64,000 bases of DNA from Schmidtea polychroa (Eukaryota), in contig CM097885.1 in assembly GCA_044892525.1 (NCBI GenBank), positions 62,001-126,000 on the forward strand, read 5' to 3'. The notes below the pieces were generated by a model that made no database searches, had not been told where the DNA came from, and saw nothing but the letters and a program-made list of their open reading frames with translations. Shown here piece after piece: positions 6,597 to 64,000 of this stretch (within the stretch, counting starts at the first letter, position 1; each line of letters opens with the position of its first letter). The position numbers were made by a program, and so were the translations under genes.

Positions 6597-6652
6597 TTTT
6601 ATATATTAAAATTTACACACACAAAATAGGATTAATTAAATATATTATGTAA

Positions 6653-7470: not shown

Positions 7471-7479
7471 GGTAAATTT

Positions 7480-8390: not shown

Positions 8391-8399
8391 AATAATAAT

Positions 8400-9817: not shown

Positions 9818-9868
<51 letters not shown>

Positions 9869-11745: not shown

Positions 11746-11776
<31 letters not shown>

Positions 11777-12289
11777 TTTTTTTTTTTATTTTTTTATTTT
11801 TTTTTAATTTTACATTTACATTATATTCTAACAAGAGGTAAATTATAACGATAATATTTCAATTTGAATAAAATTTTAATTAGTAATTATTCAATTTGAA
11901 TAAATTTTAATTAGAAATTATTTAATTTATTATAAAATAAAACGCTGAGTTAATTTTAGATAAACTGGATATTAATATTTCGGAAAAAATAAATAAATAA
12001 ATAAAATAAACACAAAAATAATATTTCTTACTTGAAACTAATTATCTAAATTAATTGGACAAATGAATAATTAAATGATAAAACACATTTTAATTAACTA
12101 AGTCAAACAATTCACAATATATATTTTATTATTCACATAAATTTAATTGTTAAAGTGCTTGTTTCGATTTGCATTCATTTCTAGACATAGCAGTTGCAAT
12201 ATGCATTTGGCGAATCTTATAGTGACCGTAGGCATAACTTTCATTACAATTGTACCAATACCTTTTATCGTCCAAACATTGGAGAGCTC
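11292..12289. mobile_element. Terminal fragment of element C including the last ~45 codons of polB
   Basis: Begins AGTAGTGAATAGTAAGG; direct copy of ~15641-16596; switches to B sequence at GAGCTC/ACGGC. Confidence 0.85.
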
Positions 12290-15200
12290 ACGGCTTGTTA
12301 TGTAATAAACTAGTTTAAATTACATATCCTCTCCACTTATATTCCTCCAATTCTCTATTTTTCACTAATTAATCACTAATATCCATCGATTTTCCACTAT
12401 TTAATCATTTGTATCCCCTCAATTTTCCATTAATTATTCACTTATGACCCCCCCCCACTCCGGATATTTAATCAATTATATTTCGCCGATTTTGATTAAT
12501 TATTCACTTCCCCACAAATATTTGTTTTAAAAGTTTTTATGAATTTTAAATAAATTCAATTAATATATTTCCATTCTTATCAACTTTCTTCTTATCTATG
12601 CCCATTCAATGATCCATTAATGAATTATTCTACCAATTATTTTCACCCATTTGAATTTATCATCGAGTAATTTCCTCACTTTAATGAAGATTCTTACCAC
12701 CTTCATTGTTAATTTTATCAAAGTTTAAAGAATATTTCTCTTTACATTGCTTACCACTTTAGAATTTTTATCGAAATTTATGATAATTTTACTGATTCAA
12801 TGAAGAATGAGTTAATTAATATATACTCTGAGTTTATCCGACAAAATATTCTGTCCCCCTATGGGTATTGCTCACAAGGGTACTACTCACATTCAACATG
12901 TCGCAAGGGTACTGATCATTTAATGCTTTTATTTGAATGATTATTTAGGCAAATTTGATGTTTAAGGCATTCATTGATAATTTTTAGAGTTGATGGTTTT
13001 AGTAAATATTCAAGTAAATTTCTATAATTTTTGTGAATTTTTATGAATTTTTTGTGGATTTTTATCATTCTTGTGAATTTCTATCATTTTTGTGAATTTT
13101 TATGAATTTTGTGAATTTCCATTATTTTCATGAATTTCCGTAATTTTTTGTGAATATGCGTAATTTTTGTAGATATCTATCATTTTCATGGATTTCTAAC
13201 ATTTTTGCAAATTTCATGTTTATTGAATGAATATTTAATAATTTAAAGTTAGTTCTAAGATAAATTTAATTAATTTCTTGATAATTGGATGTATTTTTAA
13301 TTTTAAATAAAAATTTATTTTAATGAGGTTAATAATTAAAGTTTGTACAATAATCAAGTGATAGGATAAATTTTTATGAGGATATTGAATAATTTTCTAA
13401 GAATTTCATGTTGACTGATTAAAAGTTTTAATGGTGATAAATTTAATTGATAAATTTAGTTAATTTCTTGATAATTAGTGGTATTTTATTGAATAGTTTT
13501 TAAATAAAAATTAATTTCATTGACAATTAGGTTAATAATTAAGTGATAGAATAAATTTTTGATGATAACTTTGTAATATATTTGACTAGATAATTTTTTT
13601 CAATAATTTTCTAAGAATATTTATCAATGACTTTAAATTTACTTGATAATTATTGTAGGATATACAGAAATTTAGTTTGCTGTTATTGCTTGAAAATGAT
13701 TGGTTGAATCGATGAAGAATTATGATCAATCAATATATATCATCTCCAGTATTTGATGGTAAATATTTGTAGAAAATTTTAGTAAATTTTGATCTTTTAG
13801 TGGGCTCTTATTATTTAGCTTCTAAATTATTTCAATGGAAGAATGCCTGGTGTCTTTAACAATTTATGAAAATTCATACTTTTTGAAGTTCTCTAAGGAT
13901 ATTAAGAGGATTGATATATATTAAAGGGTTCAAGTGGGTGGAATCTTTAGGGAAATTAAGGGATATAATCGGATAGATGTTTAAAAGGGTAGAAATATTT
14001 GCTGAGAGATCGGATAAGATGGGATATTATCGATTAGATTTAATGAGAGATGGGAATATATGATTTTTAAAGGGATATAGTCGGTTAGATTTAATGAGAG
14101 ATCGGTTAAGATGGGATATTGTTGGTTAGATTTAATGAGAGATCGGTTAAGATGGGGAAAATATGATCTTTTAAGGGGATATAGTCGGTTAGATTTAATG
14201 TGAGATGGGTTAAGATGGGAATATATTATTGTAAGGGAGATATAGTCGGTTGCTTTTAATGAGGGAAGGGTTTCGATGGGAATATATGATTTTTTAAGGG
14301 TGATGTTGGTAAAATATCAATGTTTTTTAAGGAAATTGCAATACATTAGTCAGTTATGAATCAATAATAATTATATCGTTTTATTAGGTTGTGATTAATG
14401 CACAGTAAATTAATTTAGAACAATGTTTTATTAAGTAGGGATAATGATCGATTTACTTGGTTTTGACAATGAAATCTTTACAGATAATTGGGATTGATAT
14501 CAACTTTAATTTATTTTTATCTTTATTTAGGCGGAGAATGACAAAAGTTTAGAAATATGGACTTAAAACATCGACTTAATAAAATTGATCTTTATTGGAA
14601 GAAATCTTGATTTTAATTAGTAATTAAATCGGTTGAATATTGGTAAAAATGATCATTTGAAGAAATATATTTTATTGAATGGATAAATTTAATCTTTTAA
14701 TGGGACCTAGTCAGTTATATTTATTTTAAATTTCGAGTACAGTGATTAACAAAAAGTTAATTATAACCAGTTTTATCAATAGTGAAACATGTATGATAAT
14801 AGGAATTAAAGTTAGAATTATAGTCATTTAAAGGGGAGTTTAAGCAATCTTATTAGTCTGAGGGGAATATATGATCTTTAACAAGTACTTATCATTAAAA
14901 TATCAATCTTAAAAGATAGAGTTATTTCAGGGAAATTTGATGCTTTTTAGATGATTTTAGTGAAATATTTGTAATAATATGAATTAAGGGTAGAAATATA
15001 GTCATTTAAGGGATTTTAAGGAATCTTGTTAGTTTGAGGTAAATATATGATCTTTAACAAGTATTTATCATTACAATACTAATCTTTACATATTGATATA
15101 TTTGGGAGGAAATGAGAAATTGGAGAATTCACTAGGATATACCAATTATTGTCATTTAAATAAATTTACTGGTTTATTAGATGTTATCATTAGTTATCTA

Positions 15201-15640
15201 GTCTCTTTTGGAATTTTATGATAATTATTTTTATTGTAGATTGCTGACTTTGATAATTGTAATGAATTTATACTGATTTTTTTTGAATATATTGAGAAAT
15301 CAGTCAATCAATTTGAGTACATGTATTACTTTTACAAAAATAATTAAATTTAATTTTATTTAAATTAATTTATTCAATCTTAATCAATTATCTACTAGAT
15401 CTTATCTTATTAATTTATTATCTTAGTTGATTCAACTTGAATGATCAGCATTTTTTTTTATTTATTGGATGATTAGAATTTTTTCTTGTCCATTAATTAA
15501 ATTTTTATGATATTTATTTTGAATAATTTAAATTTTTACAATTATTTAATCAATTTTTACCAAGTTATTGATGCCTTGAGTTCAAATAATTTTTCATCCA
15601 ATTTTTCAAGTGAAGAGTATTTGCTTTTAAAGATCAATTT
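12288..15640. repeat. Inner right-arm segment of B
   Basis: Same sequence and orientation as ~43282-46637; contains GATGGG/TCGGTTAGATTTAATGAG repeats near 13990-14300. Confidence 0.85.
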
Positions 15641-16455
15641 GTAGTGAATAGTAAGGACTCCAGGACACTTTCAAGGTCATCCCAATGTCCAGATCAAATA
15701 TAGGTCAATCGAATCATTTTTTTTTTTTTTAATTAACATTTTATTTAATTACTTCTTTTTAATTTTTTTTTTTTTTTTTTTTCATTTTAATTTTATTAAT
15801 TAATTATTTTATTATGTTTTATTTTAATTTATTACATTTAATTAATTTATTAGTTTATTAATATTTTATTTTAATTACTTACGCTATTTAATTATTATTA
15901 TTATTATTATTATTTTTTTTTTTTAATTAATTTATTTATTTTTTAATTTTATTTAATTACTTCTATTTATTTTTTTTTTCTTTTTAATTTTCTTAATTAA
16001 TTATTTTATTATGCTTTTATTTTAGTATTATTTTATTATTTTATTATTTTATTTATTATTATTATTTTTTTTTTATTTTTTATTTTTTTTTTTATTATTT
16101 TTTTTTTTTTTAATTTTACATTTACATTATATTCTAACAAGAGGTAAATTATAACGATAATATTTCAATTTGAATAAAATTTTAATTAGTAATTATTCAA
16201 TTTGAATAAATTTTAATTAGAAATTATTTAATTTATTATAAAATAAAACGCTGAGTTAATTTTAGATAAACTGGATATTAATATTTCGGAAAAAATAAAT
16301 AAATAAATAAAATAAACACAAAAATAATATTTCTTACTTGAAACTAATTATCTAAATTAATTGGACAAATGAATAATTAAATGATAAAACACATTTTAAT
16401 TAACTAAGTCAAACAATTCACAATATATATTTTATTATTCACATAAATTTAATTG

Positions 16456-19400
16456 TTAAAGTGCTTGTTTCGATTTGCATTCATTTCTAGACATAGCAGT
16501 TGCAATATGCATTTGGCGAATCTTATAGTGACCGTAGGCATAACTTTCATTACAATTGTACCAATACCTTTTATCGTCCAAACATTGGAGAGCTCGTTTT
16601 TCTGTCATGAAAGTATACAACTGATGATTGACACTTCCTATTCTTTTTTGTGGGATGCTCACTGTTCCACCATCAGTATACACTTTTTTATAGGCTTCAT
16701 GTGTAAGATTAGAGTTTGTAAGTCTTATTCCTTTGGCTTTTAGAGTGTTTTTATCGACTTGGAGTGAGTAGCACTTGGGTCGAAGAAACACCCATTCTTT
16801 ATATTGATTTCCTTTATTCTCATCCTTGAATTTCCTGATTACCGAACAAATTTTATCTGAGAACAATGGATCAGTCACTGGATAATTTGAAGTATCTAGG
16901 AGCCCATCGGCAATCATTTTTGGATATAGTTGTAAGCGTAAATCTACATTTTTACACTCTAAAAAGAAGGAATCTGTGTCACCGGCTACGATATTAATTT
17001 GACAATTGAATTCTTCTCTATAACTCTGTAGTTCTTTATATTGAAACTGGTACATGCGAAGTTTGGATAAATCAAGTACGGTTTGTCCAATATACATTGG
17101 TCTATCTAAACACACAATTTCCTTATTGAGTATAACAGCAATGAGATCATCCGCAATCTTGATGCTACGACGAAACATAGGATTACTACAATAAGTTATC
17201 AATCTTTTGCTTTTGCTGCATAATCTCAAATTTATACGTTTCTTCAAGTTTTCCACAGTTTTACCGTATAAACTGTTGTTCTTTAACTTATAATAATCTC
17301 GCTGAAACGAATCTGTACTAGCTGCTCTCATTTTGGTATTGTAATCAATATAGCCTTTGAAAATAGCCACTTGCTTGAATTCTACAGCACGATTAACTTT
17401 TGTGACTTTTGCGCCGTAACTCAACCACTCTGTCAAAACTCTACCATTAACTACATAGTTTTTCTTAGGCTCATGAGTTAACAACAGCTTTTCAACTTTA
17501 CTACCAGGTGGATAACAAAGCTCAGGAGCTATAGGTAAATCATCTAGTTTATCTTGTATACTATCAGGAATGACGATGTCAACCTCTAGAACATATCCAA
17601 GATCTCCATCAAACTTATCCCCATTTGCACATCTTTCAACAATACCATTCATTTCAGTCTGATCATTTATCCATCTAAATTCACCAACAGGAAGTTTTTG
17701 CGACAGCGCCCATCCATATAAATTATTAACATCTAGGTATGACATTTGTGTTGATTCATCAGCTTCAACATGATGTTTGTTGATAAATGTCATTCCACCA
17801 CGAATACCAGCTTCAAATAAACGGTAAAGCTCTGGATCTTGAATAAGTTCTACTGGTTCAGGTAACTGTTTAATAGCTGATGCCCAACTTAATCCGGGTA
17901 TGGAAACAAACGATAGAGCCTCAAGTCCATCTTCGTCAAATGTTTTTTCTCTGAAAGCTTCAAAAACATCGGCCAACAGAAAAACATCCAACTTGAGATA
18001 TACTAGCATGTAATCTAGCAGTGTCTCACAGTTGTATTGTCGCCAGATTCGATTTGCATGTATATAATCTTCTTGACTAACTCCCTCCCAAATCGGTGGT
18101 AATTCTGTTATTGACTGTAAAACATCCATTGATGTAGCCATATCATAAGGAAATATGCCTTTACCAGTTATTATATGCGAATTGAAAATCTTTGAAGTAA
18201 GTGGAAGACGTGGCAAGTTTTTTGATAAATTTGCCAAGCTGCTATTTAAAAATTGTAAAGAATCAATGAATCTAATTCTTCTGCCTTTCGATGTCGCTGT
18301 AAGTGTGAGAAACTTTTCTGTTGATTGAGGAATAACAATTAAATTCCAATCGGGGAATTTTCCAATTGCATATTTTAATATATGATGAATGTCATATCCA
18401 CGAAGATTATGAAATACAACAGGTAAAGACGGATTGATTCTTCTAGCCAAATTACAATCTTGACACGCTGCTCCGAGATATTGACCGGTAAAATGATCAT
18501 GATCCCGAACAGGTATATTGATAATCTTTTTACAAAGGTAGCAATGAGTTTGATTCGTAAATTCTTCCTGCTGTTCCCAAGTGAGTTCCATCATTTCCTT
18601 CGATCCATTAATTTTATACCACGGATAAACTATGTCTGTAGCTATATCATCCAATGCTTGTATAAACTGAATGATACAGTTTTTCCCAACAAATGTTTCA
18701 TTTCGAATCGGACAACCTTGATGAAGAAGCACAAATTCAGATGCAATCGGCTCATGTTTTTGGAAGTGCTTGTCATCTAGAGGTAATATTGATTCAAAGT
18801 CCGCGTAGACAACAAACTGCTGTTTTATAGTTTTACTCCAGTCTTTAAATTCGATATATTTATTCTCTGGCATTGAGTATAGAGTCGTCCGCTCCACATT
18901 CTTCCTACAAAGACCTATATGTCTTTCAAAAGCAGGACGTTTTTGAAACCCATGAAGACACGTATGACACCAATGTGATTGGATTCTGACTCCTTCTACT
19001 CTATCTCTGTAATTGAGCAGTCGATCGAGATTAGTTACAGCCAAAAAATGATAATTTAATTCTAAAATTTAGTTAATATTTTTAATGATTAAAAGAAATA
19101 TTACCTTCTTCAATCAATAAGAGATATAATTGACATCCCGTCGAAGTACTTCTATATACCAAGTCAACGAACGGATTCTTGAAAATATCATTAGTTTTTT
19201 GTTTAATTGGATCTTTATTATATTTGAGAACATTGATCGCTAGATTAGGATTCATTGCCTCAAATTGGCAAATGTTAACCAACTTCATTGGAAACCAATC
19301 TGATTTCCATTTTAACTCTAAATATATATATTTTTAGAATGATATAAATATATATTACCACTTAAATTATATTTCATTACTCTTTCTCTGTGGTGTTTTA

Positions 19401-20431
19401 TGTCATCATAATGTAATACGGCCAGTATGCTATATAAAAAGCAGAATTGATCATTATTTTGAACATTAACTAAAGCCTGGCAGTTTTTCAGGTAATTTGG
19501 CGTTTTAATGTAACTTGAACCTAAGTAAATATCTTGATTTATATATATAATAATGTAAATAAACTTACCAGATACATGTATTATGTCTGATAATTTAGTT
19601 AAAATCATAGTAACTTCTAATATTTTATGAATTCTCCACCCACTACTTTGTTGAGTGTATTTCTCCAACTTTTCTTTTAATTTTTCAATTCCATCATTAA
19701 TAAATGAAGATGACATTGTAATTGCTTTATTCGACAAACACCATTTTTTAATTTCACCATCCTCTTTGATAAACTCTGCACAAAGTCCAAATTGGATTTT
19801 TACTGTACCCATTCGTTGAATATGATCTTCTATTTCTCTGATGAGACAATCTGGAACAACAATGTCAGGAGAATTAATTGCAGATACATCGCTTGTCAAT
19901 TCAACACGAGAACCATTTAAGTCAGACTCCCGACGTGGACACAATTGTATGTTAGAGTCTCCATTTCCGTAAAATATTGACTTTCGTTTTGTGGTGCCAG
20001 AGTTTTGTCTAACTATATTTATAATTAATATTAAACAACTTAAATAACATAACTTGTAACATATTCTTTAATCTGCTTAGGATCGTATGATGTATTCATT
20101 TTCGGTTGTACTATAAAAAATTAATAATTGTTAATAGTAGAAAGAGTATTACTTTTAGTGATCATCCTGCTCTTCGTTTCTTCGAATCTTCTAAGATGGT
20201 GTCCGTGTTGTCGTACAAACATTAACCACCTACCTGGTGATATAATGAGACATTCCGGACATATGTAACCCGATAAGGTAGAGTCATTTATCTTGAAATA
20301 TGATGATGTAACTGATTTACAGTTCTCCACATCTTCATGACTTTCGGCAATACAAAATTTATATAAACTGCATCCGTTCACTAAAAGAAAATAATCATTA
20401 ATATTAGATAGAGAATAAAAAATTATTCACT
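16456..20431 (-). CDS. polB: Protein-primed family B DNA polymerase, spliced, mirror copy
   Basis: Coordinates sum to 44285 with the + copy. Same predicted exon structure; five amino-acid differences between the ORF-track translations. Confidence 0.88.
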
Positions 20432-20454
20432 TATATAAGTTAAATTAAAAGTTT

Positions 20455-20595
20455 AAATGACAAACATTTGAAAAGTTACTGCTTATATATTACACATGAT
20501 TAAATTCTGACCAATCAAAATCAAGGAAGGGGTAGGAAAAATAAATATATTCTGACCAATCAAAATCAAGGAAGGGGTAGGAAAAATAAATGTGT
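20455..20595 (-). promoter_or_regulatory. Predicted Pol II promoter of C polB (mirror copy)
   Basis: Two CCAAT boxes in a 45-bp duplication, TATA box, initiator-like TCATT. Confidence 0.55.
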
Positions 20596-21164
20596 TACAG
20601 TATTTTAAAAGTTCAATATATTTTAAAACACATTTTGATGCTAAAGTTGACTTATTTAACATTTTCATAATAATTTAATAAAAATAATGTGATGAACCCA
20701 CAAAGTAATATCATTTTTCATCAAATTGCAAAACAGTAATAACGTTTTCATAAAATTGTAACAAAATAATAACATATTTCAGATAAATTTTCAACAGTTG
20801 TAAAATATTTAAACAAATTGTAACAAGATTAGAAAATATTACAACAAAGTAGTAACATATTTCAGAAAATTTCAACAAAGTTGTAAAATATTTATCAAAT
20901 TGTAACTAAAATAATAAAAATATTGCAACAAAGTAATAAAATAATGATGTTAATTGGGACAAATCAATACATTATTTCGAAGACGGACAACAAATTAAAA
21001 AGAATATTGTAATAAATTGTGAAGTCTTTCAGTAAATTACAACAAAGTAATAACATATTTCGGAAATATTTCACCAGATGTAAAATATTTAAGCAAAATG
21101 TTATAAGATTATAAAAATATTGCAACAAAGTAATAAAATAATACAACATTTTAAACTCTAGATC

Positions 21165-21910
21165 AATCCATTTTATAGAAAATTAAATTTTATCTCTATA
21201 ATATATGAATAAATATACAAGGAAATTACGTTAACTGTATGAAAAATACAAATTTATCGTAAAAAACATGTGTGTATTACACACAACATACAAGACATAA
21301 TTTTTAATCAAGCTATTTTATAGAAAATTAAATTTTATCTATATAATATATGAATAAATATTCAAGGAAATTACGTTAACGTATAATAAATACAAATTTA
21401 TCATAAAAACATGTGTGTATTACACAAAAAAACAAGATACATAATTTCTAATCAATCCATTTTATAGAAAATTAAATTTTATCTATATTATATGAATAAA
21501 ATCCTAAGAAAATTACGTTAACTATATGAAAAATACAAATTTATCTTAAAAACATGTGTGTATTACACACAGAACAAGATACATAATTTCTAATCAATCC
21601 ATTTTATAGAAAATTAAATTTTATCTATATATTATATGAATAAAATCCTAAGAAAATTACGTTAACTGTATGAAAAATACAAATTTATCGTAAAAACATG
21701 TGTGTATTACACACAAAGCGACAAACTAAAATTGTAATTGAGCCATTTTATAGAAAATTAAATTTTATCTATATAATATATGAATAAAAATCCAAGAAAA
21801 TTACGTTAACCGCGCGAAAAATACAAATTTATCGTAAAAACATGTGTGTATTACACACAAAGCGACAATCTAAAATTGTAATTGAGCCATTTTGTAGAGA
21901 ATTAAATTCT
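21165..21910. repeat. ~144-bp tandem repeat, five units plus a partial
   Basis: Unit starts at about 21168, 21313, 21457, 21599, 21743, 21887; contains TGTGTGTATTACACACA and ACGTTAAC. Confidence 0.9.
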
Positions 21911-21979
21911 GCCTATACATGGTTACACTTAAATCCCAATCGAACAAAGAGAAAAGAGAGAAAAAGAGAGAGAAAAAAC

Positions 21980-22305
21980 AGTAGAGTAGGGTATTGTGTG
22001 GACCCGGGAACAAAGACATATGACGTCATACCCCCCCCACCCCCCCGGGGGGAGGGGGGGGTTTTAAATATTTTTTTAAATTTTTTTTTAAAATTTTTTT
22101 TTTAAAAATTTATATTACGTTGCGGTATTTTAAAATTTATATTACGTTGCGGTATTTTAAAATTTATATTACGTTGCGGTATTTTAAAAATATATTACGT
22201 TGCGGTATTTTAAAATTTAATTATATTTTATTCACATCATTCGTAAGGTCTTGAAGAGATCTATGCAAAGGTTTCACCCGGGTCCACACAATACCCTACT
22301 CTACT
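21980..22305. mobile_element. 326-bp mini-element of family D at the palindrome centre
   Basis: 29-bp TIR AGTAGAGTAGGGTATTGTGTGGACCCGGG. Left end matches the D end at 59470. Internal TGACGTCA, C-run/G-run and four TATATTACGTTGCGGTATTTTAAAA repeats. Confidence 0.85.
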
Positions 22306-22374
22306 GTTTTTTCTCTCTCTTTTTCTCTCTTTTCTCTTTGTTCGATTGGGATTTAAGTGTAACCATGTATAGGC

Positions 22375-23120
22375 AGAATTTAATTCTCTACAAAATGGCT
22401 CAATTACAATTTTAGTTTGTCGCTTTGTGTGTAATACACACATGTTTTTACGATAAATTTGTATTTTTCGCGCGGTTAACGTAATTTTCTTGGATTTTTA
22501 TTCATATATTATATAGATAAAATTTAATTTTCTATAAAATGGCTCAATTACAATTTTAGTTTGTCGCTTTGTGTGTAATACACACATGTTTTTACGATAA
22601 ATTTGTATTTTTCATACAGTTAACGTAATTTTCTTAGGATTTTATTCATATAATATATAGATAAAATTTAATTTTCTATAAAATGGATTGATTAGAAATT
22701 ATGTATCTTGTTCTGTGTGTAATACACACATGTTTTTAAGATAAATTTGTATTTTTCATATAGTTAACGTAATTTTCTTAGGATTTTATTCATATAATAT
22801 AGATAAAATTTAATTTTCTATAAAATGGATTGATTAGAAATTATGTATCTTGTTTTTTTGTGTAATACACACATGTTTTTATGATAAATTTGTATTTATT
22901 ATACGTTAACGTAATTTCCTTGAATATTTATTCATATATTATATAGATAAAATTTAATTTTCTATAAAATAGCTTGATTAAAAATTATGTCTTGTATGTT
23001 GTGTGTAATACACACATGTTTTTTACGATAAATTTGTATTTTTCATACAGTTAACGTAATTTCCTTGTATATTTATTCATATATTATAGAGATAAAATTT
23101 AATTTTCTATAAAATGGATT
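22375..23120. repeat. ~144-bp tandem repeat, mirror copy
   Basis: Reverse complement of 21165-21910. Confidence 0.9.
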
Positions 23121-23689
23121 GATCTAGAGTTTAAAATGTTGTATTATTTTATTACTTTGTTGCAATATTTTTATAATCTTATAACATTTTGCTTAAATAT
23201 TTTACATCTGGTGAAATATTTCCGAAATATGTTATTACTTTGTTGTAATTTACTGAAAGACTTCACAATTTATTACAATATTCTTTTTAATTTGTTGTCC
23301 GTCTTCGAAATAATGTATTGATTTGTCCCAATTAACATCATTATTTTATTACTTTGTTGCAATATTTTTATTATTTTAGTTACAATTTGATAAATATTTT
23401 ACAACTTTGTTGAAATTTTCTGAAATATGTTACTACTTTGTTGTAATATTTTCTAATCTTGTTACAATTTGTTTAAATATTTTACAACTGTTGAAAATTT
23501 ATCTGAAATATGTTATTATTTTGTTACAATTTTATGAAAACGTTATTACTGTTTTGCAATTTGATGAAAAATGATATTACTTTGTGGGTTCATCACATTA
23601 TTTTTATTAAATTATTATGAAAATGTTAAATAAGTCAACTTTAGCATCAAAATGTGTTTTAAAATATATTGAACTTTTAAAATACTGTA

Positions 23690-23830
23690 ACACATTTATT
23701 TTTCCTACCCCTTCCTTGATTTTGATTGGTCAGAATATATTTATTTTTCCTACCCCTTCCTTGATTTTGATTGGTCAGAATTTAATCATGTGTAATATAT
23801 AAGCAGTAACTTTTCAAATGTTTGTCATTT
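23690..23830 (+). promoter_or_regulatory. Predicted Pol II promoter of C polB
   Basis: ATTGG at 23725 and 23770, TATATAAG at 23796, TCATT with its A at 23827 (31 nt from the TATA start). Confidence 0.6.
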
Positions 23831-23853
23831 AAACTTTTAATTTAACTTATATA

Positions 23854-26800
23854 AGTGAATAATTTTTTATTCTCTATCTAATATTAATGATTATTTTCTT
23901 TTAGTGAACGGATGCAGTTTATATAAATTTTGTATTGCCGAAAGTCATGAAGATGTGGAGAACTGTAAATCAGTTACATCATCATATTTCAAGATAAATG
24001 ACTCTACCTTATCGGGTTACATATGTCCGGAATGTCTCATTATATCACCAGGTAGGTGGTTAATGTTTGTACGACAACACGGACACCATCTTAGAAGATT
24101 CGAAGAAACGAAGAGCAGGATGATCACTAAAAGTAATACTCTTTCTACTATTAACAATTATTAATTTTTTATAGTACAACCGAAAATGAATACATCATAC
24201 GATCCTAAGCAGATTAAAGAATATGTTACAAGTTATGTTATTTAAGTTGTTTAATATTAATTATAAATATAGTTAGACAAAACTCTGGCACCACAAAACG
24301 AAAGTCAATATTTTACGGAAATGGAGACTCTAACATACAATTGTGTCCACGTCGGGAGTCTGACTTAAATGGTTCTCGTGTTGAATTGACAAGCGATGTA
24401 TCTGCAATTAATTCTCCTGACATTGTTGTTTCAGATTGTCTCATCAGAGAAATAGAAGATCATATTCAACGAATGGGGACAGTAAAAATCCAATTTGGAC
24501 TTTGTGCAGAGTTTATCAAAGAGGATGGTGAAATTAAAAAACGGTGTTTGTCGAATAAAGCAATTACAATGTCATCTTCATTTATTAATGATGGAATTGA
24601 AAAATTAAAAGAAAAGTTGGAGAAATACACTCAACAAAGTAGTGGGTGGAGAATTCATAAAATATTAGAAGTTACTATGATTTTAACTAAATTATCAGAC
24701 ATAATACATGTATCTGGTAAGTTTATTTACATTATTATATATATAAATCAAGATATTTACTTAGGTTCAAGTTACATTAAAACGCCAAATTACCTGAAAA
24801 ACTGCCAGGCTTTAGTTAATGTTCAAAATAATGATCAATTCTGCTTTTTATATAGCATACTGGCCGTATTACATTATGATGACATAAAACACCACAGAGA
24901 AAGAGTAATGAAATATAATTTAAGTGGTAATATATATTTATATCATTCTAAAAATATATATATTTAGAGTTAAAATGGAAATCAGATTGGTTTCCAATGA
25001 AGTTGGTTAACATTTGCCAATTTGAGGCAATGAATCCTAATCTAGCGATCAATGTTCTCAAATATAATAAAGATCCAATTAAACAAAAAACTAATGATAT
25101 TTTCAAGAATCCGTTCGTTGACTTGGTATATAGAAGTACTTCGACGGGATGTCAATTATATCTCTTATTGATTGAAGAAGGTAATATTTCTTTTAATCAT
25201 TAAAAATATTAACTAAATTTTAGAATTAAATTATCATTTTTTGGCTGTAACTAATCTCGATCGACTGCTCAATTACAGAGATAGAGTAGAAGGAGTCAGA
25301 ATCCAATCACATTGGTGTCATACGTGTCTTCATGGGTTTCAAAAACGTCCTGCTTTTGAAAGACATATAGGTCTTTGTAGGAAGAATGTGGAGCGGACGA
25401 CTCTATACTCAATGCCAGAGAATAAATATATCGAATTTAAAGACTGGAGTAAAACTATAAAACAGCAGTTTGTTGTCTACGCGGACTTTGAATCAATATT
25501 ACCTCTAGATGACAAGCACTTCCAAAAACATGAGCCGATTGCATCTGAATTTGTGCTTCTTCATCAAGGTTGTCCGATTCGAAATGAAACATTTGTTGGG
25601 AAAAACTGTATCATTCAGTTTATACAAGCATTGGATGATATAGCTACAGACATAGTTTATCCGTGGTATAAAATTAATGGATCGAAGGAAATGATGGAAC
25701 TCACTTGGGAACAGCAGGAAGAATTTACGAATCAAACTCATTGCTACCTTTGTAAAAAGATTATCAATATACCTGTTCGGGATCATGATCATTTTACCGG
25801 TCAATATCTCGGAGCAGCGTGTCAAGATTGTAATTTGGCTAGAAGAATCAATCCGTCTTTACCTGTTGTATTTCATAATCTTCGTGGATATGACATTCAT
25901 CATATATTAAAATATGCAATTGGAAAATTCCCCGATTGGAATTTAATTGTTATTCCTCAATCAACAGAAAAGTTTCTCACACTTACAGTGACATCGAAAG
26001 GCAGAAGAATTAGATTCATTGATTCTTTACAATTTTTAAATAGCAGCTTGGCAAATTTATCAAAAAACTTGCCACGTCTTCCACTTACTTCAAAGATTTT
26101 CAATTCGCATATAATAACTGGTAAAGGCATATTTCCTTATGATATGGCTACATCAATGGATGTTTTACAGTCAATAACAGAATTACCACCGATTTGGGAG
26201 GGAGTTAGTCAAGAAGATTATATACATGCAAATCGAATCTGGCGACAATACAACTGTGAGACACTGCTAGATTACATGCTAGTATATCTCAAGTTGGATG
26301 TTTTTCTGTTGGCCGATGTTTTTGAAGCTTTCAGAGAAAAAACATTTGACGAAGATGGACTTGAGGCTCTATCGTTTGTTTCCATACCCGGATTAAGTTG
26401 GGCATCAGCTATTAAACAGTTACCTGAACCAGTAGAACTTATTCAAGATCCAGAGCTTTACCGTTTATTTGAAGCTGGTATTCGTGGTGGAATGACATTT
26501 ATCAACAAACATCATGTTGAAGCTGATGAATCAACACAAATGTCATACCTAGATGTTAATAATTTATATGGATGGGCGCTGTCGCAAAAACTTCCTGTTG
26601 GTGAATTTAGATGGATAAATGATCAGACTGAAATGAATGGTATTGTTGAAAGATGTGCAAATGGGGATAAGTTTGATGGAGATCTTGGATATGTTCTAGA
26701 GGTTGACATCGTCATTCCTGATAGTATACAAGATAAACTAGATGATTTACCTATAGCTCCTGAGCTTTGTTATCCACCTGGTAGTAAAGTTGAAAAGCTG

Positions 26801-27829
26801 TTGTTAACTCATGAGCCTAAGAAAAACTATGTAGTTAATGGTAGAGTTTTGACAGAGTGGTTGAGTTACGGCGCAAAAGTCACAAAAGTTAATCGTGCTG
26901 TAGAATTCAAGCAAGTGGCTATTTTCAAAGGCTATATTGATTACAATACCAAAATGAGAGCAGCTAGTACAGATTCGTTTCAGCGAGATTATTATAAGTT
27001 AAAGAACAACAGTTTATACGGTAAAACTGTGGAAAACTTGAAGAAACGTATAAATTTGAGATTATGCAGCAAAAGCAAAAGATTGATAACTTATTGTAGT
27101 AATCCTATGTTTCGTCGTAGCATCAAGATTGCGGATGATCTCATTGCTGTTATACTCAATAAGGAAATTGTGTGTTTAGATAGACCAATGTATATTGGAC
27201 AAACCGTACTTGATTTATCCAAACTTCGCATGTACCAGTTTCAATATAAAGAACTACAGAGTTATAGAGAAGAATTCAATTGTCAAATTAATATCGTAGC
27301 CGGTGACACAGATTCCTTCTTTTTAGAGTGTAAAAATGTAGATTTACGCTTACAACTATATCCAAAAATGATTGCCGATGGGCTCCTAGATACTTCAAAT
27401 TATCCAGTGACTGATCCATTGTTCTCAGATAAAATTTGTTCGGTAATCGGGAAATTCAAGGATGAGAATAAAGGAAATCAATATAAAGAATGGGTGTTTC
27501 TTCGACCCAAGTGCTACTCACTCCAAGGCGATAAAAACACTCTAAAAGCCAAAGGAATAAGACTTACAAACTCTAATCTTACACATGAAGCCTATAAAAA
27601 AGTGTATACTGATGGTGGAACAGTGAGCATCCCACAAAAAAGAATAGGAAGTGTCAATCATCAGTTGTATACTTTCATGACAGAAAAACGAGCTCTCCAA
27701 TGTTTGGACGATAAAAGGTATTGGTACAATTGTAATGAAAGTTATGCCTACGGTCACTATAAGATTCGCCAAATGCATATTGCAACTGCTATGTCTAGAA
27801 ATGAATGCAAATCGAAACAAGCACTTTAA
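23854..27829 (+). CDS. polB: Protein-primed family B DNA polymerase with endonuclease VII-like insertion; predicted 7 coding exons, 1236 aa
   Basis: Motifs YADFE, FHNLRGYD, YLKLDV, YLDVNNLYG, KLKNNSLYGK, AGDTDS, and RDHDHFTG..AACQDCN. Predicted GT-AG introns 23855-23904, 24133-24174, 24232-24272, 24717-24764, 24927-24967, 25181-25223 give one open frame. Joins 4-6 align with the intronless D PolB. Confidence 0.9.
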
Positions 27830-30108
27830 CAATTAAATTTATGTGAATAATAAAATATATATTGTGAATTGTTTGACTTAGTTAATTAAAATGTGTTTTA
27901 TCATTTAATTATTCATTTGTCCAATTAATTTAGATAATTAGTTTCAAGTAAGAAATATTATTTTTGTGTTTATTTTATTTATTTATTTATTTTTTCCGAA
28001 ATATTAATATCCAGTTTATCTAAAATTAACTCAGCGTTTTATTTTATAATAAATTAAATAATTTCTAATTAAAATTTATTCAAATTGAATAATTACTAAT
28101 TAAAATTTTATTCAAATTGAAATATTATCGTTATAATTTACCTCTTGTTAGAATATAATGTAAATGTAAAATTAAAAAAAAATAAAAAAATAAAAAAAAA
28201 AAAAATAAAATAAAAAAAAAAAAAATAAAAAATAAAAAAAAAATAAAAAAATAAAAAAAAATAATAATAATAAATAAAATAATAAAATAATAAAATAATA
28301 CTAAAATAAAAGCATAATAAAATAATTAATTAAGAAAATTAAAAAGAAAAAAAAAATAAATAGAAGTAATTAAATAAAATTAAAAAATAAATAAATTAAT
28401 TAAAAAAAAAAAAAATAATAATAATAATAATAATAATTAAATAGCGTAAGTAATTAAAATAAAATATTAATAAACTAATAAATTAATTAAATGTAATAAA
28501 TTAAAATAAAACATAATAAAATAATTAATTAATAAAATTAAAATGAAAAAAAAAAAAAAAAAAAAATTAAAAAGAAGTAATTAAATAAAATGTTAATTAA
28601 AAAAAAAATGATTCGATTGACCTATATTTGATCTGGACATTGGGATGACCTTGAAAGTGTCCTGGAGTCCTTACTATTCACTACTTTGGAGAATTCACTA
28701 GGATATACCAATTATTGTCATTTAAATAAATTTACTGGTTTATTAGATGTTATCATTAGTTATCTAGTCTCTTTTGGAATTTTATGATAATTATTTTTAT
28801 TGTAGATTGCTGACTTTGATAATTGTAATGAATTTATACTGATTTTTTTTGAATATATTGAGAAATCAGTCAATCAATTTGAGTACATGTATTACTTTTA
28901 CAAAAATAATTAAATTTAATTTTATTTAAATTAATTTATTCAATCTTAATCAATTATCTACTAGATCTTATCTTATTAATTTATTATCTTAGTTGATTCA
29001 ACTTGAATGATCAGCATTTTTTTTTATTTATTGGATGATTAGAATTTTTTCTTGTCCATTAATTAAATTTTTATGATATTTATTTTGAATAATTTAAATT
29101 TTTACAATTATTTAATCAATTTTTACCAAGTTATTGATGCCTTGAGTTCAAATAATTTTTCATCCAATTTTTCAAGTGAAGAGTATTTGCTTTTAAAGAT
29201 CAATTTGTTAGTACATAGTTGTTGGTTCTAGGTAGTTGGTTGTTAGTACTTGGTACTTGGTAGTTGGTATCTGATTGACTTTTTAGATTTTGATAAGAAA
29301 ATAGTGTATGCGATGAAGAATATTTTGTATTTAATTGCTATTATTTTTATGTGTTGTTAGTTGATTGTTGGTACTAAGTTGTTGGTTTCTTGTATTTGGT
29401 AGTTGGTACAGTGTTGTTTACTGATTGTTATATAGTTGTAGGTTGATATTTGTTAATTTCTCGATGGGTTTTGATGGTGGTTGTTAGTAGTTGTTGTTTG
29501 AAACCTAGTGGTTAGTACTTAGTAGCTAGTTAATGGGTAGGTTGTGGTTAAGTGTTACCAATACCCCTACGACTAGTACCTTTACGACCAGTACCCTTAC
29601 GACTAATACCCTTACGACCTGTACCCTTAGGGGGTCAAAACATCCTGTCGGATAAACTCAGAGTATATATAATAAAACTGATCAATAATAAGTATCTATT
29701 GAATGTGATTTTTACTTTGCAATAATAAGTCAGTAGTTATCATTTAAAAGAAGAATGTTTTGTAAATTAGAATTCATTAGTCTTTCATTGTAATTATTTT
29801 GAATTCCACGTGGTGTTTTAAAGTGGTTGAGTTGTGGTTTTTTGATGAAAATCAACATTTTTGTTAAATTTAGACATTTTGAAAAGGTTTTTCTACTGAT
29901 TGTAATTAAAATTATTATAGAAGCTGTATAAAAAATATTAATTTAAAAAGCATTTCATAAAATACAGTGAAGAATATTTAGTAGTTAGTTGTAAGTATCT
30001 GGTTGTTTGAGAGTTAGTTAGTACGTGGTATCTAGTTGTAAGTATTTGTTAGCACCTAGTTAAAAAATAATCAGTAACCGATTGTTGGTAACTGTTGAAT
30101 TATTATTA

Positions 30109-30156
<48 letters not shown>

Positions 30157-33100
30157 CATTTAAATTTTCATTATAAATTACATTTCTCAAAAAAGTTGGT
30201 GGTTATTCAATCTTTTGATAATAAAATTAAAAATCTTACTTTAATTTACTTATTACATTACTTATTTAAAAATTATTACTTTAATTAAATTCTTTAAAAA
30301 TTATTACTTTAATTTACTTATTTAACTTTAATTTAATTTTTTAGAACATTGATTACTTATTTTTAAAATTTGGACCTTAATTAACTTTAATTTAATTTTT
30401 TAACTTTAATTTACTTATCCTTAATTTACCTATTTATGCTTTATTACTTAATTTTACACCATAATTTACTAAACAACTAATTATAACCCTTATTTTCATA
30501 TTTAACCAATAATTTCATGTGGTCATCTGGTTGTAAGTGTTTGGTATCTAGTTGACAGTACTAGGTATCTTGTACTTGGTTGTTAGTACTTGGTTGATAA
30601 TGCTTAGTGTCTGGTTGTATGTACTTGGTATCTAGTTGTTAGTAACTAGTTGTAGGTAATTAATGCTTAGTAGTTGGTAACTGGTTGTTAGTATCTAGTT
30701 GTAGGTGGTAGCTAGTTGGTTGTAGGTACTTAGTAGTTGGTTGATAATGCTTAGTACTTGGTAGGTGGTTGTTAGTTGGTTGTAGGTACTTAGTAGTTGG
30801 TAATTAATGCTTAGTACCTGGTTGATGTTGGTTGTAGGTACTTAGTAGTTGGTAGCTAGTTGGTTGCTATCAGGTAACTAGTTGTTAGTAACTAGTTGTA
30901 GGTATCTGGTTGTTAATACATGTTCGTAATTTACTGGTACTTGGTATCTAGTTGTTAGTTGTTAGCGGGTTGTTAGTAACTAGGTATCTAGTTGTTAGTA
31001 CTTGGTTGATAATGCTTAGTACCTGGTTGATGTTGGTTGTTAGTACTTAGTAGTTGGTAGCTAGTTGTTAGTAACTAGTTGTAAGTACTTGGTATCTGGT
31101 TGTTAGTTGTTATCTGGTTGTGAGTAGTTGGTATCGGGTTGTTAGCTGGTTGATAGTACTTGGTATCTGGTATTTAGTTGTAGGTACTTGGTTGTTTGAG
31201 AGTTTTTTAGTACGTGGTATCTAGTTGTAGGTACTTGGTATCAGGTAACTGGTTGTTAGTATCTAGTTGTAAGTACTTGGTAGTTGGTTGTTAGTTGTTG
31301 GTATCAGGTTGTAAGCTGGTTGATAGTACTTGGTATCTGGTTGTTAGTTGTTAGCGGGTTGTTAGTAACTAGGTATCTAGTTGTTAGTACTTGGTTGATA
31401 ATGCTTAGTACCTGGTTGATGTTGGTAGTTAGTACTTAGTAGTTGGTAGCTAGTTGTTAGTAACTAGTTGTAAGTACTTGGTATCTGGTTGTTAGTTGTT
31501 ATCTGGTTGTGAGTAGTTGGTATCAGGTTGTTAGCTGGTTGATAGTACTTGGTATCTGGTAATTAGTTGTAGGTACTTGGTTGTTTGAGAGTTATTTAGT
31601 ACGTGGTATCTAGTTGTAGGTACTTAGTATCAGGTAACTGGTTGTTAGTATCTAGTTGTAAGTACTTGGTAGTTGGTTGTTAGTTGTTGGTATCAGGTTG
31701 TAAGCTGGTTGATAGTACTTGGTATCTGGTAATTAGTTGTAAGTACTTGGTTGTTTGAGAGTTATTTAGTACGTGTTATCTAGTTGTTAGCTGGTTGTAG
31801 CTAGTTAATGGGTAGGTGGTTGTTAGTAGTTGGTATCAGGTAACTAGTTGTAGGTATCTAGTTGTAGGTATCTGGTATCAGGTAACTGGTTGTTAGTAAC
31901 TAGTTGTAGGTATCTGGTTGTTAATACATGTTCATAAGTTACTGGTTGTTGGTACTAAGTTGTTGGTTTGTTGTTGAATTATTATTAAAATTTGTCTTTG
32001 AAAAATATTTCATAAAAATTTTCATTAAAAATTATCTTAAAAATTTCCATCTAAAATTATCATTGAAAAATATTTCATAAAAATTTCCATCTAAAATTAT
32101 CATTGAAAAATATTTCATAAAAATTTCCATTAAAAATTACTTAAAAAATTATTTCATAAAAATTTCCATTAAAAATTACCTAAAAAAATATTTCATAAAA
32201 ATTTCCATTAAAAATTACCTAAAAAAATATTTCATAAAAATTTCCATTAAAAATTACTTAAAAAAAATATTTCATAAAAATTTCCATTAAAAAATTTCAA
32301 TTCTCAAACACCTTCAACTTTTTGTTAATAAATTTTAAAATCTTACTTTAATTTACTTATTACATTACTTTAATTTACTTATTTAAAAATTATTACTTTA
32401 ATTTACTTATTTAAAATTTTTTACCATTGATTACTTAATTTAAAAATTTGGACCATTATTTACTGTAATTTAATTTTTAAGAACTTAAATTTACTTTAAT
32501 TCAAAAATTTGGACCATTATTTACTTTAATTGAAAAATCTGGACCATAATTTACTGTAATTTAATATTTTAGAACCATAATTTACTTTAATTTAATTTTT
32601 AGAACCATTATTTACTGTAATTTAATTTTTTAGGACCATTATTACCTTATTTGAAAATTTGAGCCATAATTTACTTTAATTTAATTTTTTAGAACCATTA
32701 TTTACTTTAATTTAAAAATTTGAGCCATAATTTACTGTAATTTAATTTTTTAGGACCATAATTACCTTATTTGAAAAATTTGAACCATAATTTACTTTAA
32801 TTGAAAAATTTGGACCATAATTTACTGTAATTTAAAAATCTTAGTCCATAATTTACTGTAATTCAATTTTTAGACCCATAATTTACTGTAATTTTAAAAA
32901 ATTTACCACGTTTTTTAGTGTAGACCACCTTTGTCTATTGAAATTCTCAGGACCAAGGAGACCCACCTTAATTGACCTAGAAAAATCCATGCTTTTTTAG
33001 TGATAGTCGGATTTTTGTATTGAAAATATCCTGAGACCTTAAATTACCATGCTTTTTTAGTGTAGACCAGCTTTTTGTATTGAAAATATCCTGAGACCTT

Positions 33101-33700
33101 AAATTACCATGCTTTTTTAGTGTAGACCACCTATTTCTCAGGACCAAGGAGACTCACCTCACTATAGTGTGAAAAATTCCATGCTTTTTAGTGATAGTCG
33201 GATTTTTGTATTGAAAATCCCAGGACCATCGAGACCCCCTCACTATAGTGTGAAAAATTCCATGCTTTTTTAGTGGTAGTCGGATTTTTGTATTGAAAAT
33301 CCCAGGACCATCGAGACCCCCTCACTATAGTCTGAAAATTCTATGCTTTTTTATTGATAGTTATTGATAATTTTTTGTATTGAAAATCCCAGGACCATCG
33401 AGACCCCCTCACTATAGTCTGAAAATTCTATGCTTTTTTATTGATAGTCGGATTTTTGTATTGAAAAAAATTTTTTGTATTGAAAATCCCAGGACCATCG
33501 AGACCCCCTCACTATAGTGTGATAAAAAAAAAATTTGGACCAAAAATCCCTGAAAGCAAAAAAATGAGTTGGGAACAATTGCGTAATAAAAATTTGGGAA
33601 CAAACCCCCCCCCCCGGGGGGGGTAATTGTTCCCGTAGGCTACTATCTACCTACTATTAATTTCATCAATAAATAGTCACACATTAACAACTTATTTTAT

Positions 33701-38011: not shown

Positions 38012-38065
<54 letters not shown>

Positions 38066-60535: not shown

Positions 60536-63500
60536 TTAAAAAATATTCAAGACAATAAGATCAATACATTTATTAAATAATTTAACCACATCATCGAAAA
60601 TAATCATGTCCAAATAATTATCATCTGCTGGATCAAGGAAATCATCTGTATCATCTGCTGTGATAGCTTCCGTTGAATCTATAAATATATCGGTGTCACC
60701 GCCCCTATAATGTACATTTTTATCCACCCAATTTCGCTTATCATCTCTACACGTCAATGCTCTTTTATTATTTTTAATACTAAAAAGTTGGTGATTTTTT
60801 GACGTTATTCTAAACTGAGGGACTGTGTATATTTTATCATTTAAATAACAATCTAGATACGACTGATGTGTTAGTCCAGTATCTTTCATACTTATCCCCT
60901 TAGCCTTCATACTTTCCTCATCACCCATCAAACTGTAACATTTAGGTCTCAAGAACACCCAATCTTTATATATTAACCCTTTATTCTCGTCTTTGAATTT
61001 ACCAATAACAGAATCAAGGTTCCTACTATATAAAGGATGATTTGGGTCATAATTCGAAGTATCTAATAATTGATCTCTAATCATCCCAGGTAAAAGAATG
61101 TCAAGACTACAATGTTTAATTTCCAAGAAGAAGGAATCTGTGTCCCCAGCAACGATATTAATTTCGCAGTTGAATTCGTCGCGATATTTTTGCAACTCTT
61201 CATACTGCAGCTGGTACATCCTGAGTTTGGATAATCTAGTACAGTTTGACCAATGTAACTAGGTCTATTCAAACACACTATGTGCTACCTCAATAGAACC
61301 GAAATCAAGTCATCATCGATTTTCGTGGATTTACGAAAAGTCGGTTTCGAACAGAATGTTAATAATCTCTGTGAAGAATTACACAGACGTAAATTAATAC
61401 GTTTTTTAAGATTTTCAACAGTCTTGCCGTAAAGACTGTTGTTTAATAATTTATAAAAAATTTTATCGAGTTTATTTGTCGACGCTGCTCGTAACGCCGT
61501 ATTTGTGTTAATATAATTTTTGAAAATTTTATCTTGTTTAAATTTAATTGCTCTATGTGTTTTTGATATTTTAACACCTAATTTAATAAATATTTGTAGA
61601 AGCCTCCAATGAAGAACGTAGTTCCTCTTGGGGCTGTGTGTAAGCAACAGCTTCTCTATTTTCGAACCCGGTACACACATCTTTTCAGCGGCAACGGGAA
61701 GATCGTCCAGTTTGTTGTGAATTGACGTCGGTATTTCTAAATCCACTTCTATGGTATAACCATAATCAAGCAGATCTAAATCTACCGTTGTGCATTCAAC
61801 AATTATATTATTTAATAAATTATTATCAGTAACCCATTCAAAGTCACTGCACGGTAATGGTTGACTTAAAGATCAACCGTATAAATTATTTATATCTATG
61901 TAAAGCAAAGCGGTATCCGGGTCTGTTTTTACATAATGTTTATTTACAAAAGTTAGTCCGCCACGGATACCGCCCTCGAAAAAGTTATACATCTCCATAT
62001 CGGTGAGGAGCTCAATTGGAGAGTTTAAAGTTAATAAGGCTGAATTCCAAGACATAACTGGAATCCCTAAGAAATTTAGTGGCTCTAGTCGGTTATGAGC
62101 AATGGACTTAGCTCTAAATTGCTGGAAAAAATCGGCTAAAAAGAAAACATCAAGTTTTAAATAAACCATCATGTAATCGAAAAGTGATGTACATGAAGTT
62201 TCAACCCAAATTTGCTGAGCTGTCTCATATTCAGCGGGAGTCACATCTTTCCAAATAGGAGGTAACTGACGAGTGTTATGTAAAACCTCTAATGAAGTTG
62301 CGGCATCATAAAGAAAAATTCCCTTTGCAGTTATTATTGTACCCTGAAATTCTGATTCGGTCAAGGGTAAAGATGATAAAGTTTTGACAGCATTGTTTAA
62401 AGACTCGCTGACAAATTGATAAGAGTCTATAAATTTAACAGTTAATGAGTCAATCCTAGCAAAAAGACTAAGGAATTTCTCGCTGGTTAAAGGAATACAA
62501 CTAATATTCCATGAATGATATTTTGAAAGGCCAAATTTCAAGATATGATGCAGATCATAACCCTTTAAATTATGAAATACTACATGAAGGGTATATCTAA
62601 TTTGCCTCGACAGATTACAAGTTGTACAAGCGGCACCAAGATATAGACCGATAAAATGATCATGGGCCCTAACTGGACTAACTAAAGGCTTATTGCACAA
62701 ATAACATGATGTGCTGTTTTCAAACATTAATTGTTGCTCATCTGTAATTATCATTTTCTTTTGATAATTTTTATAATAATAAAGAGTTACAATATATTTC
62801 CCTATCATTTCAATTTCAGTAAGAAATTGATCGACACAATCTAAACCGGTGAACGACTTATAAATTTTTACGCCCGTGAAATTATTAATAAAAAGCATAC
62901 CGGCAGAAATAGGCAGATGACGTTGAAAGTAGCGAGTGTCTTTAGGTAAGATAGTCTCAAAGTCAGCGTAAATAACAAAGGGAGGAGTGACTGTTTTACT
63001 CCAATCAGTAAATTCTAAATATTTATTTTTAGGCAATGTGTACAAGGTAGTACCAAGCTGATTTTTATCACAAAGACCCTTATGTCTATTAAAAGCGTCA
63101 TCATACCTAAAACCGTTTAAACATCTAGGGCACCACTGACTACAAATCCTAACAGGAGTGATTGAACTATTCCTACAATTAAGGAATCTATTTAGGTCTG
63201 TGATTCCAAGATAATGATAATTATCATTCTTTTCGATTAATAATAAATTGATAGGTATGGCTCCTACTATCTTACTCCTGTATATTATATCAATAAAGGG
63301 ATGTTTCATAACTGCATCTTCATCGGAAATGTCAATCAAAGCCTTTTCGTTATAAGTAAGAACAATAATACTATAACCCGGATTTTGTTGTTCAAATTTA
63401 CTTATATTTGATAGTTTCATCGGCATATCATTAGGATCAAATTTAATTTCAGAAAGATTGTATGAATTAGGGCGATTTCTATCTTGCCTATTTATACTAT

Positions 63501-63936
63501 CATATTTAATAATTGACAAGAAACTATACAAAAGGCAGAAGTGGTCATTAATAACTACATTAACGAGACAGCTTAAGTTTCTTAAAGATTTTGGGGTTTC
63601 AATAAAACTTCTACCACTTAACCGACTTATTTCAGCAAATTTAGTCAGAACAAAGCTTATGTATTCTATTTTATTGATAGTCCAATTACTACCTTTCTCA
63701 TTAATTTTAATTATTTTTTCATTTAAACGAGCAATACCTTCGTCAATGAATGTATCGCTCCAAACTCGGGTGGAATTCGAGATTACAAAAGATTGTAACT
63801 CATCATCTTTTATAAATTCCACCTTTAGACAAAATTGAATTTTACATGATTTTAATTTATTTACATATAAATTTAATTTATTTATTAAAATGTCTGGTAC
63901 AGAGACCGTTTTTAAATCTAAAGACGAAACGTCCAT
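60536..63936 (-). pseudogene. polB: Protein-primed PolB of element D, intronless, inactivated
   Basis: Homologous to C PolB throughout. TGA at 61875-61873 (NLYG*SLSQ), TAG at 61287-61285, 1-nt deletion near 61235; the C-terminal AYGHY motif appears partly deleted. Confidence 0.92.
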
Positions 63937-64000
63937 TTTTAATATAATATGATTATTATTTAAATCACTGGTGACATCTACGATACCATAACCTACTTGA

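Follow-up and report, generated by a model that had tools for sequence, protein, structure and literature searches.

Can the replicative polymerase gene of a Maverick/Polinton-type element be split by introns of the kind its host uses, and what would such introns do to its product? The question arises from a 64,000-nucleotide stretch of Schmidtea polychroa DNA (GenBank assembly GCA_044892525.1, contig CM097885.1, positions 62,001 to 126,000 of the forward strand), hereafter called the window and numbered from its first letter. A virus-type pPolB gene on its plus strand (23854..27829) had been proposed, from the letters alone, to carry six tiny introns in its N-terminal region. Our analysis makes it probable that the gene encodes the replicative polymerase of a Maverick/Polinton-type element which has adapted to life in the host nucleus, and that it is furnished with host-type introns.

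In the portions of the published reports used here and below, Maverick core genes are intronless in vertebrates (PMC8097293) and in nematodes (10.1101/2022.07.12.499685). The window gene resembles these in the kind of element and in polymerase family, and differs from them by its six introns and its occurrence in at least 40 near-identical copies. No pPolB split by spliceosomal introns was found described for an animal Maverick in the literature consulted. Surveys of endogenous polinton-like viruses commonly use prokaryote-style gene finders, on the assumption that introns are absent; one large survey makes this assumption for endogenous viruses (PMC10120064). Such a finder would recover from the window gene an 870-amino-acid polymerase and would miss the zinc domain, the terminal protein (TP) and most of the viral OTU-type protease (vOTU).

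Gene model and comparative evidence for the introns

As read from the sequence, the gene comprises six GT-AG introns, all of them in phase 1 and all located in the first third of the gene. The joined exons amount to 3711 nucleotides (nt), or 1236 codons, with no internal stop and with the stop codon at 27827-29. If the three phases are assumed to be equally frequent, the probability of six out of six introns in one named phase is by our own arithmetic about 1/729. The intron sizes, GT-AG ends, phase, exon lengths and uninterrupted catalytic exon of the original prediction were all found at the places it had given. The gene is composed as follows (a slash within sequence letters marks a splice joint):

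23854, plus strand: final nucleotide of exon 1, supplying the A of the interrupted start codon A/TG; exonic, not intronic
23855..23904, plus strand: intron 1, 50 nt, GT-AG, phase 1, interrupting the start codon
23905..24132, plus strand: exon 2, 228 nt, residues 1-76, C2H2-like zinc domain with CPEC...HGHH at 24024-24089
24133..24174, plus strand: intron 2, 42 nt, GT-AG, phase 1
24175..24231, plus strand: exon 3, 57 nt, residues 77-95, a portion of the disordered linker, with weak alignment support
24232..24272, plus strand: intron 3, 41 nt, GT-AG, phase 1
24273..24716, plus strand: exon 4, 444 nt, remaining linker and terminal-protein-like D1 domain (~24344-24694)
24717..24764, plus strand: intron 4, 48 nt, GT-AG, phase 1, at the boundary of D1 and vOTU
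24765..24926, plus strand: exon 5, 162 nt, start of the vOTU domain, candidate catalytic Cys at 24842-24844
24927..24967, plus strand: intron 5, 41 nt, GT-AG, phase 1
24968..25180, plus strand: exon 6, 213 nt, middle of the vOTU domain
25181..25223, plus strand: intron 6, 43 nt, GT-AG, phase 1
25224..27829, plus strand: exon 7, 2606 nt, rest of the gene through the stop

A search of the genome (781 Mb in four chromosome-size contigs, with the window at C1:62001-126000) gave 8819 pPolB candidates, 91 of which were scored, many with uninterrupted frames of 1200-1480 amino acids (aa). The longest frames from 12 fetched loci were used for paralog comparison. The spliced protein aligns with the uninterrupted frames of two paralogs (L030 and L031) in a single high-scoring segment pair over residues 9-1222 at 48% identity; seven further paralog frames are ~51-52% identical to it from about residue 111-121 on, and the L032 frame also starts at 121. 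This alignment is gapless across introns 4-6, where VSG/SSYIKTP faces LSGRSFIELP, NLSE/LKW faces NLSELIY, and LLLIEE/ELNYHF faces LLLLNKGNNFHY. Of 7999 scored candidates from public sequences, 5632 were homologues at E <= 0.001, mostly single frames of ~1150-1300 aa from metagenome contigs, the best of them 61-63% identical, and the same three junctions are gapless against seven metagenomic single-frame homologues as well. Thus GT...AG ends, together with a frame that becomes colinear with uninterrupted homologues after removal, as is characteristic of spliceosomal (U2-type) introns, were found for six of the six, although the sequence on either side of intron 3, in the variable linker, cannot be aligned.

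Independent evidence comes from a second intron-bearing copy with 96% nucleotide identity (L029). There are no indels between the two copies over the 3710 nt of exons 2-7, and all four indels of the transcribed part are intronic, L029 having a 3-nt deletion in intron 1, a 1-nt difference in intron 4, a 29-nt insertion in intron 5 and a 1-nt deletion in intron 6, intron 3 being identical. Intron 4 is 48 nt long, stop-free and in frame in the window copy, whereas in L029 it has 47 nt and therefore cannot be coding there. When spliced at the equivalent sites, L029 is open throughout. The dN/dS ratio between the two spliced frames is 0.23 (0.32 for exons 1-6 and 0.18 for exon 7), and the spliced frame is under purifying selection. 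The A+T content is 83-90% in the introns and 63-70% in the exons. The introns were judged to be host-style because those of a host myosin gene are similarly small (50-55 nt), AT-rich and GT-AG-ended. On the comparative side the evidence for the introns is strong; that they are spliced out is our prediction from these comparisons.

A further homologue, D, lies at the right edge of the window (60536..63999, minus strand) and is an intronless pPolB with ~50% protein identity whose frame is broken by a frameshift and an in-frame stop; the 5' end is past the window. The alignment confirmed that D is continuous over the positions of introns 4-6, as the original prediction had it. Its companion claim, that D lacks some 120 N-terminal residues, turned out to be an effect of the window edge: the frame reaches window-equivalent position 64608 and encodes MERYY...CPKC...HRLH. 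Nor is the zinc domain an extra of the split gene, for paralogs, metagenomic homologues and D all carry it. Introns 1-3 had been said to lack homology support. This no longer applies to exon 2 and the start codon, for which support was found outside the window, and still describes exon 3 and intron 3, which fall into a variable linker and rest on frame logic.

Two side observations concern D. A chimeric polymerase copy, present at G000:C2:50492535-50497335 (L014) and at L045, joins an intron-bearing 5' part to D-type sequence; the parts are 99.4% identical to window 22101-25834 and 98% identical to window 62664-61548, with a ~50-nt overlap within the His-Me finger motif. Past the window end, beside D and on the same strand (L033 5808-7182), are frames in which inspection by eye suggests a protease of adenain type and a capsid protein.

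Domain architecture of the encoded protein

The assignment to the virus-type pPolB family was upheld by a match to PF03175 (E 1.8e-31; 110 bits, the cut-off being 25.8 bits) which covers residues 217-610 in the frame of exon 7. The strings YADFES, FHNLRGYD, DVNNLYG, KLKNNSLYGK, GDTDS and RPKCY, which we take to be the Exo I/II, Pol A/B/C and KxY motifs, were located and are unbroken in frame. Exon 7 contains the following features:

25235-37, plus strand: vOTU His
25313-25378, plus strand: C2HC finger
25478-95, plus strand: ExoI
25742-25834, plus strand: His-Me/EndoVII-like insert
25871-94, plus strand: ExoII
26552-72, plus strand: Pol A
26996-27025, plus strand: Pol B
27302-16, plus strand: Pol C
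27503-17, plus strand: KxY

The insert in the exonuclease matches PF02945 (Endonuclease VII) with E 2.3e-4 and 21.4 bits, below the cut-off of 23.6 bits. The nematode/oomycete Polinton pPolB2, as presented in the available part of its description (10.1101/2023.08.22.554363), also carries a nuclease insert of HNH/His-Me type; the Pfam match of the window insert is to Endonuclease VII and below cut-off, and the likeness noted here is one of domain kind.

Pfam returned nothing useful for the intron-bearing N-terminal region, even at E 10, and its fold was approached by modelling the corresponding stretch of paralog L031, which has no interruption there (469 aa, with 79 sequences in the alignment), at a mean of 82.4 in the predicted local distance difference test (pLDDT). 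The model begins with a small zinc-type domain (residues 1-72), followed by a disordered linker (73-126) of low pLDDT and variable sequence. Of the two domains behind the linker, D1 has its best fold matches among Y-family little-finger domains and D2 among OTU proteases. In the 79 aligned sequences Cys292, at the start of a helix of the model, is nearly invariant and His396, in a strand, is invariant; a C2HC finger (C424, C427, H440, C444) follows the vOTU. Modelled alone, exon 2 folds with a pLDDT of 77 into a helix, a beta-hairpin with CPxC and a helix with HxxH, and gave no convincing fold match. Foldseek searches against the PDB yielded no match at E <= 0.001 for either model, that is, for the L031 region or exon 2. 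On the gene, the vOTU takes up exons 5 and 6 and continues into the opening codons of exon 7; its Cys is in exon 5 and its His in exon 7.

Going by the models, the intron-bearing third of the gene encodes three domains: one of C2H2-like zinc type, one that is terminal-protein-like, and the vOTU protease. The earlier suggestion that the N-terminus contains the terminal protein thus gains support from the predicted structure, in which D1 is terminal-protein-like. Polinton pPolBs are described, in the accessible part of Krupovic et al. 2024 (PMC11161782), as having N-terminal TP (D1, little-finger/PAD-like) and vOTU (D2) domains. Both marks of this type, the D1 fold and an OTU-like D2 with catalytic Cys and His, are seen in the L031 model, and the likeness extends to the PF03175 core and the flexible linker. 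Compared with the polinton pPolBs of that source, the window gene differs by: i) six spliceosomal introns; ii) a C2H2-like zinc domain ahead of the TP; iii) a C2HC finger after the vOTU; and iv) the His-Me/EndoVII-like insert in the exonuclease.

The mechanism that we infer, covering splicing, promoter, priming, self-cleavage and the way the introns arose, is as follows. Transcription would start from the central region of a palindromic unit, and the host spliceosome would remove six introns, the first removal making the start codon A/TG. The product would be a 1236-aa polyprotein composed of the C2H2-like zinc domain, disordered linker, TP (little-finger/PAD-like), vOTU cysteine protease, C2HC finger, 3'-5' exonuclease bearing the His-Me (EndoVII-like) insert, and polymerase. 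By analogy with the published model of polinton pPolBs, the TP may prime DNA synthesis and may be released from the polymerase by cleavage through the vOTU. Gain of the five internal introns presumably took place in this sublineage after its split from intronless relatives, and they would since have been copied with the element as DNA.

Origin of the introns and alternative explanations

For the catalytic part (767 columns, 90 rows) a tree was computed with FastTree under LG+gamma and rooted at the midpoint, leaving out 43 of the 120 listed proteins (shorter than 1000 aa) as well as several paralogs that were redundant. The three rows with introns make up one clade (support 1.0), which is sister to the intronless pair P0001+P0002 (local support 0.999). 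Positions 4-6 are spanned in a single frame by 72 of the 90 rows, and gain is more economical than loss because the intron clade is nested among such homologues. Mapping the intron positions on this tree therefore favours the proposal that the introns are lineage-specific and arose by gain. If so, the gene provides a dated example of several introns gained by a single gene whose sisters are intronless. With host-type introns in a core replication gene of a family that has amplified recently (at least 40 near-identical copies), it would also imply that Maverick lineages can rely on host splicing and yet spread.

The converse history, in which the introns are ancestral and were lost in other lineages, for example by recombination with cDNA, would find an argument in their 5'-biased distribution, all within the first third of the gene; such a bias is the classic trace of 3'-primed cDNA-mediated loss. 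The tree root is moreover a midpoint only. We regard this history as quite improbable: the intron clade is a tip group, the rows uninterrupted at positions 4-6 include the sister pair, and loss would be needed many times over, with five introns removed each time. That the introns were generated by an introner (an intron-generating transposon), or by copying of one intron to new sites, would account for their shared phase, and introners populate dinoflagellate maverick-polinton-like elements according to the part of that report available (10.1101/2025.03.18.643946). Those proviruses share with the window gene the presence of spliceosomal-type introns inside genes of an integrated polinton-like element; their introns form recognisable repeated introner families, whereas those of the window are tiny, with no significant likeness among the six. 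The most similar of the 15 pairs is that of introns 5 and 6 (z 2.5, p 0.012), but none of the 15 passes the multiple-test threshold, and introns of 41-50 nt show by eye no obvious terminal repeats or target duplications. An introner origin is thus unsupported by the six introns compared among themselves, no genome-wide search for look-alikes having been made, and we consider it improbable. Hardly credible is the notion of a dead gene whose introns are small AT-rich insertions with coincidental GT-AG ends. Maverick genes nearby have indeed decayed (D with its stop and frameshift, and at 5310-6605 a capsid gene broken by an in-frame stop), and the contigs compared below show no spliced RNA. However, six of six insertions are GT-AG-ended and their removal restores one frame, that frame is open in both 96% copies at the low dN/dS given above, indels are limited to the introns, and intron sizes and composition are host-like.

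Intron 1 deserves separate consideration, since it may be mis-modelled, with the start codon unsplit and a trans-spliced leader joined at acceptor 23904/23905 or translation starting elsewhere. This alternative is unlikely, though it has to be taken seriously: no joint at 23854^23905 is seen in the contigs compared below, the donor AA/GTGAAT is only moderate, and paralogs in the same genome show an acceptor-like site two codons off without A/TG. Against it, the start codon predicted from the A at 23854 and the TG at 23905-06 is precisely where the intronless homologues P0002 and P0010 begin with Met-Asn, and homologue P0003 likewise starts MN. No in-frame ATG is present between the stop at 23830-32 and 23854, and none precedes residue 54 within exon 2, although the zinc domain upstream of that residue is conserved. 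Copy L029 also keeps the donor, the acceptor and the A. A trans-spliced leader that itself provides the AUG was discarded by reasoning only: a leader ending in G would yield GTG, not ATG, in frame.

A candidate promoter was read from the sequence upstream of the split start codon:

23700..23803, plus strand: two 37-nt direct repeat copies (23700-23736 and 23745-23781), each with GATTGG, then TATATAAG at 23796-23803

The TATATAAG element stands ~50 nt ahead of the 5' splice site of intron 1, and the candidate promoter is mirrored in the other arm of the palindrome described below. This segment may serve as the promoter of the gene.

Several observations weigh against the reading of a Maverick-type polymerase gene with host-type introns. 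The read data compared with the gene consist of contigs from four runs, none recorded as RNA and possibly DNA; in these, contigs of runs X1, X2 and X4 pass unspliced through introns 1, 2 and 3, with no joint at the predicted sites. In run X1, one contig ends loosely at 25222 with 13 letters that, together with its aligned part, read exactly as the joint of exons 6 and 7. This is a hint only, with just 13 letters on one side, and an intronless DNA copy could explain it. Paralogs of the same genome are, as mentioned, without the split ATG. Exon 3 and intron 3 lie in the variable linker, where the model depends on joining two conserved frames. In the FastTree phylogeny the deeper nodes are weak (0.415) and the root is placed by midpoint. 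Finally, capsid, ATPase and integrase are absent from the palindrome arms, ~7189-33189 has no other frame of at least 150 aa, and none of the frames of at least 70 aa in 6606-16100 looks coding. The complete Maverick/Polinton gene set (double jelly-roll capsid, minor capsid, ATPase, protease, integrase) was thus not found in the pPolB unit, and membership of the gene in a complete Maverick is not shown.

We consider it improbable that the all-phase-1 layout is functional, with the host spliceosome acting as an on-switch (a start codon only after splicing) and as a source of polymerase isoforms. Introns 2-4 are located at domain borders (zinc domain, linker, TP, vOTU), and all eight exon-skipping combinations tried stay in frame and open. 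Retention of introns 2, 3, 5 and 6 leads to a stop after 86, 99, 310 and 375 aa, respectively; intron 4 in the window copy reads through without a stop and adds 16 aa. The stop-containing introns of the original prediction are therefore real for introns 2, 3, 5 and 6 and not for intron 4. Were the layout functional, exon skipping could give a TP-less or OTU-less enzyme, and retention of intron 5 or 6 could give TP-only products of 310 or 375 aa.

In runs X4, X8 and X9, which are labelled with other organism codes (B, D), 21-76% of the words of the gene are present, and an X4 contig of 711 nt runs from exon 2 into exon 4, includes introns 2 and 3 and shows five differences. The family with introns thus occurs under more than one organism label.

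Palindromic unit and genomic surroundings

The gene occupies one arm of an inverted repeat (I1, 16028-22008 / 22277-28257) with arms of 5,981 nt and 100% identity. The other parts of the unit are:

16456..20431, minus strand: mirror copy of the whole gene, with mirrored open reading frames (position p corresponds to 44285 - p)
22009..22276, no strand: unique palindrome centre, 268 nt, with 144-nt tandem repeats on either side (21191-21939 and 22331-23168)

The palindrome centre recurs with 83-93% identity, oriented either way, at 28 further loci matching the query over its full length. The intron region is ~100% identical in 40 of the 40 scored hits among 1307 candidates, which gives at least 40 copies, and the 3' part of the gene recurs likewise (40 scored of 2253 candidates). 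An assembly artefact was considered as the source of the palindrome and rejected, as 28 of the 40 scored hits pair up head to head, giving 14 pairs whose members are spaced 4183-5252 nt apart.

Weaker inverted homology (94-100%; 7189-12289 versus 27690-33189) lengthens the arms to ~15 kb, with a 3.7-kb insert at 12290-16027 in the left arm only. A second perfect palindrome (38018-42161 / 43443-47586) has arms of 4144 nt and a centre of 1281 nt, consists of the same repeat modules but has no polymerase gene, and has 12448-15642 in common, inverted.

Positions 1-6605 of the window hold a decayed Maverick module with capsid, integrase and ATPase, whose link to the polymerase gene is not established. 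The genes of this module and a repeat array farther to the right are:

3022-3852, plus strand: A32-type ATPase
3870-5075, minus strand: integrase frame (rve, E 5e-12) with an N-terminal phospholipase A2-like domain (PF08398, E 3.5e-8)
5310-6605, minus strand: double jelly-roll capsid gene with an in-frame stop
51514-58236: four tandem copies with a period of 2141 nt, 99% identical, three of the four with a 201-aa frame containing two HMG boxes (PF00505, E 6.5e-28)

Maverick-like elements are crowded at this end of the chromosome. In the 20 kb that lie upstream of the window (L034, L035) there are an inverted copy of window 1-3519 (L035 1-3531, 99.2% identity) and two more pPolB frames that are only ~26% identical to the intron-split gene.

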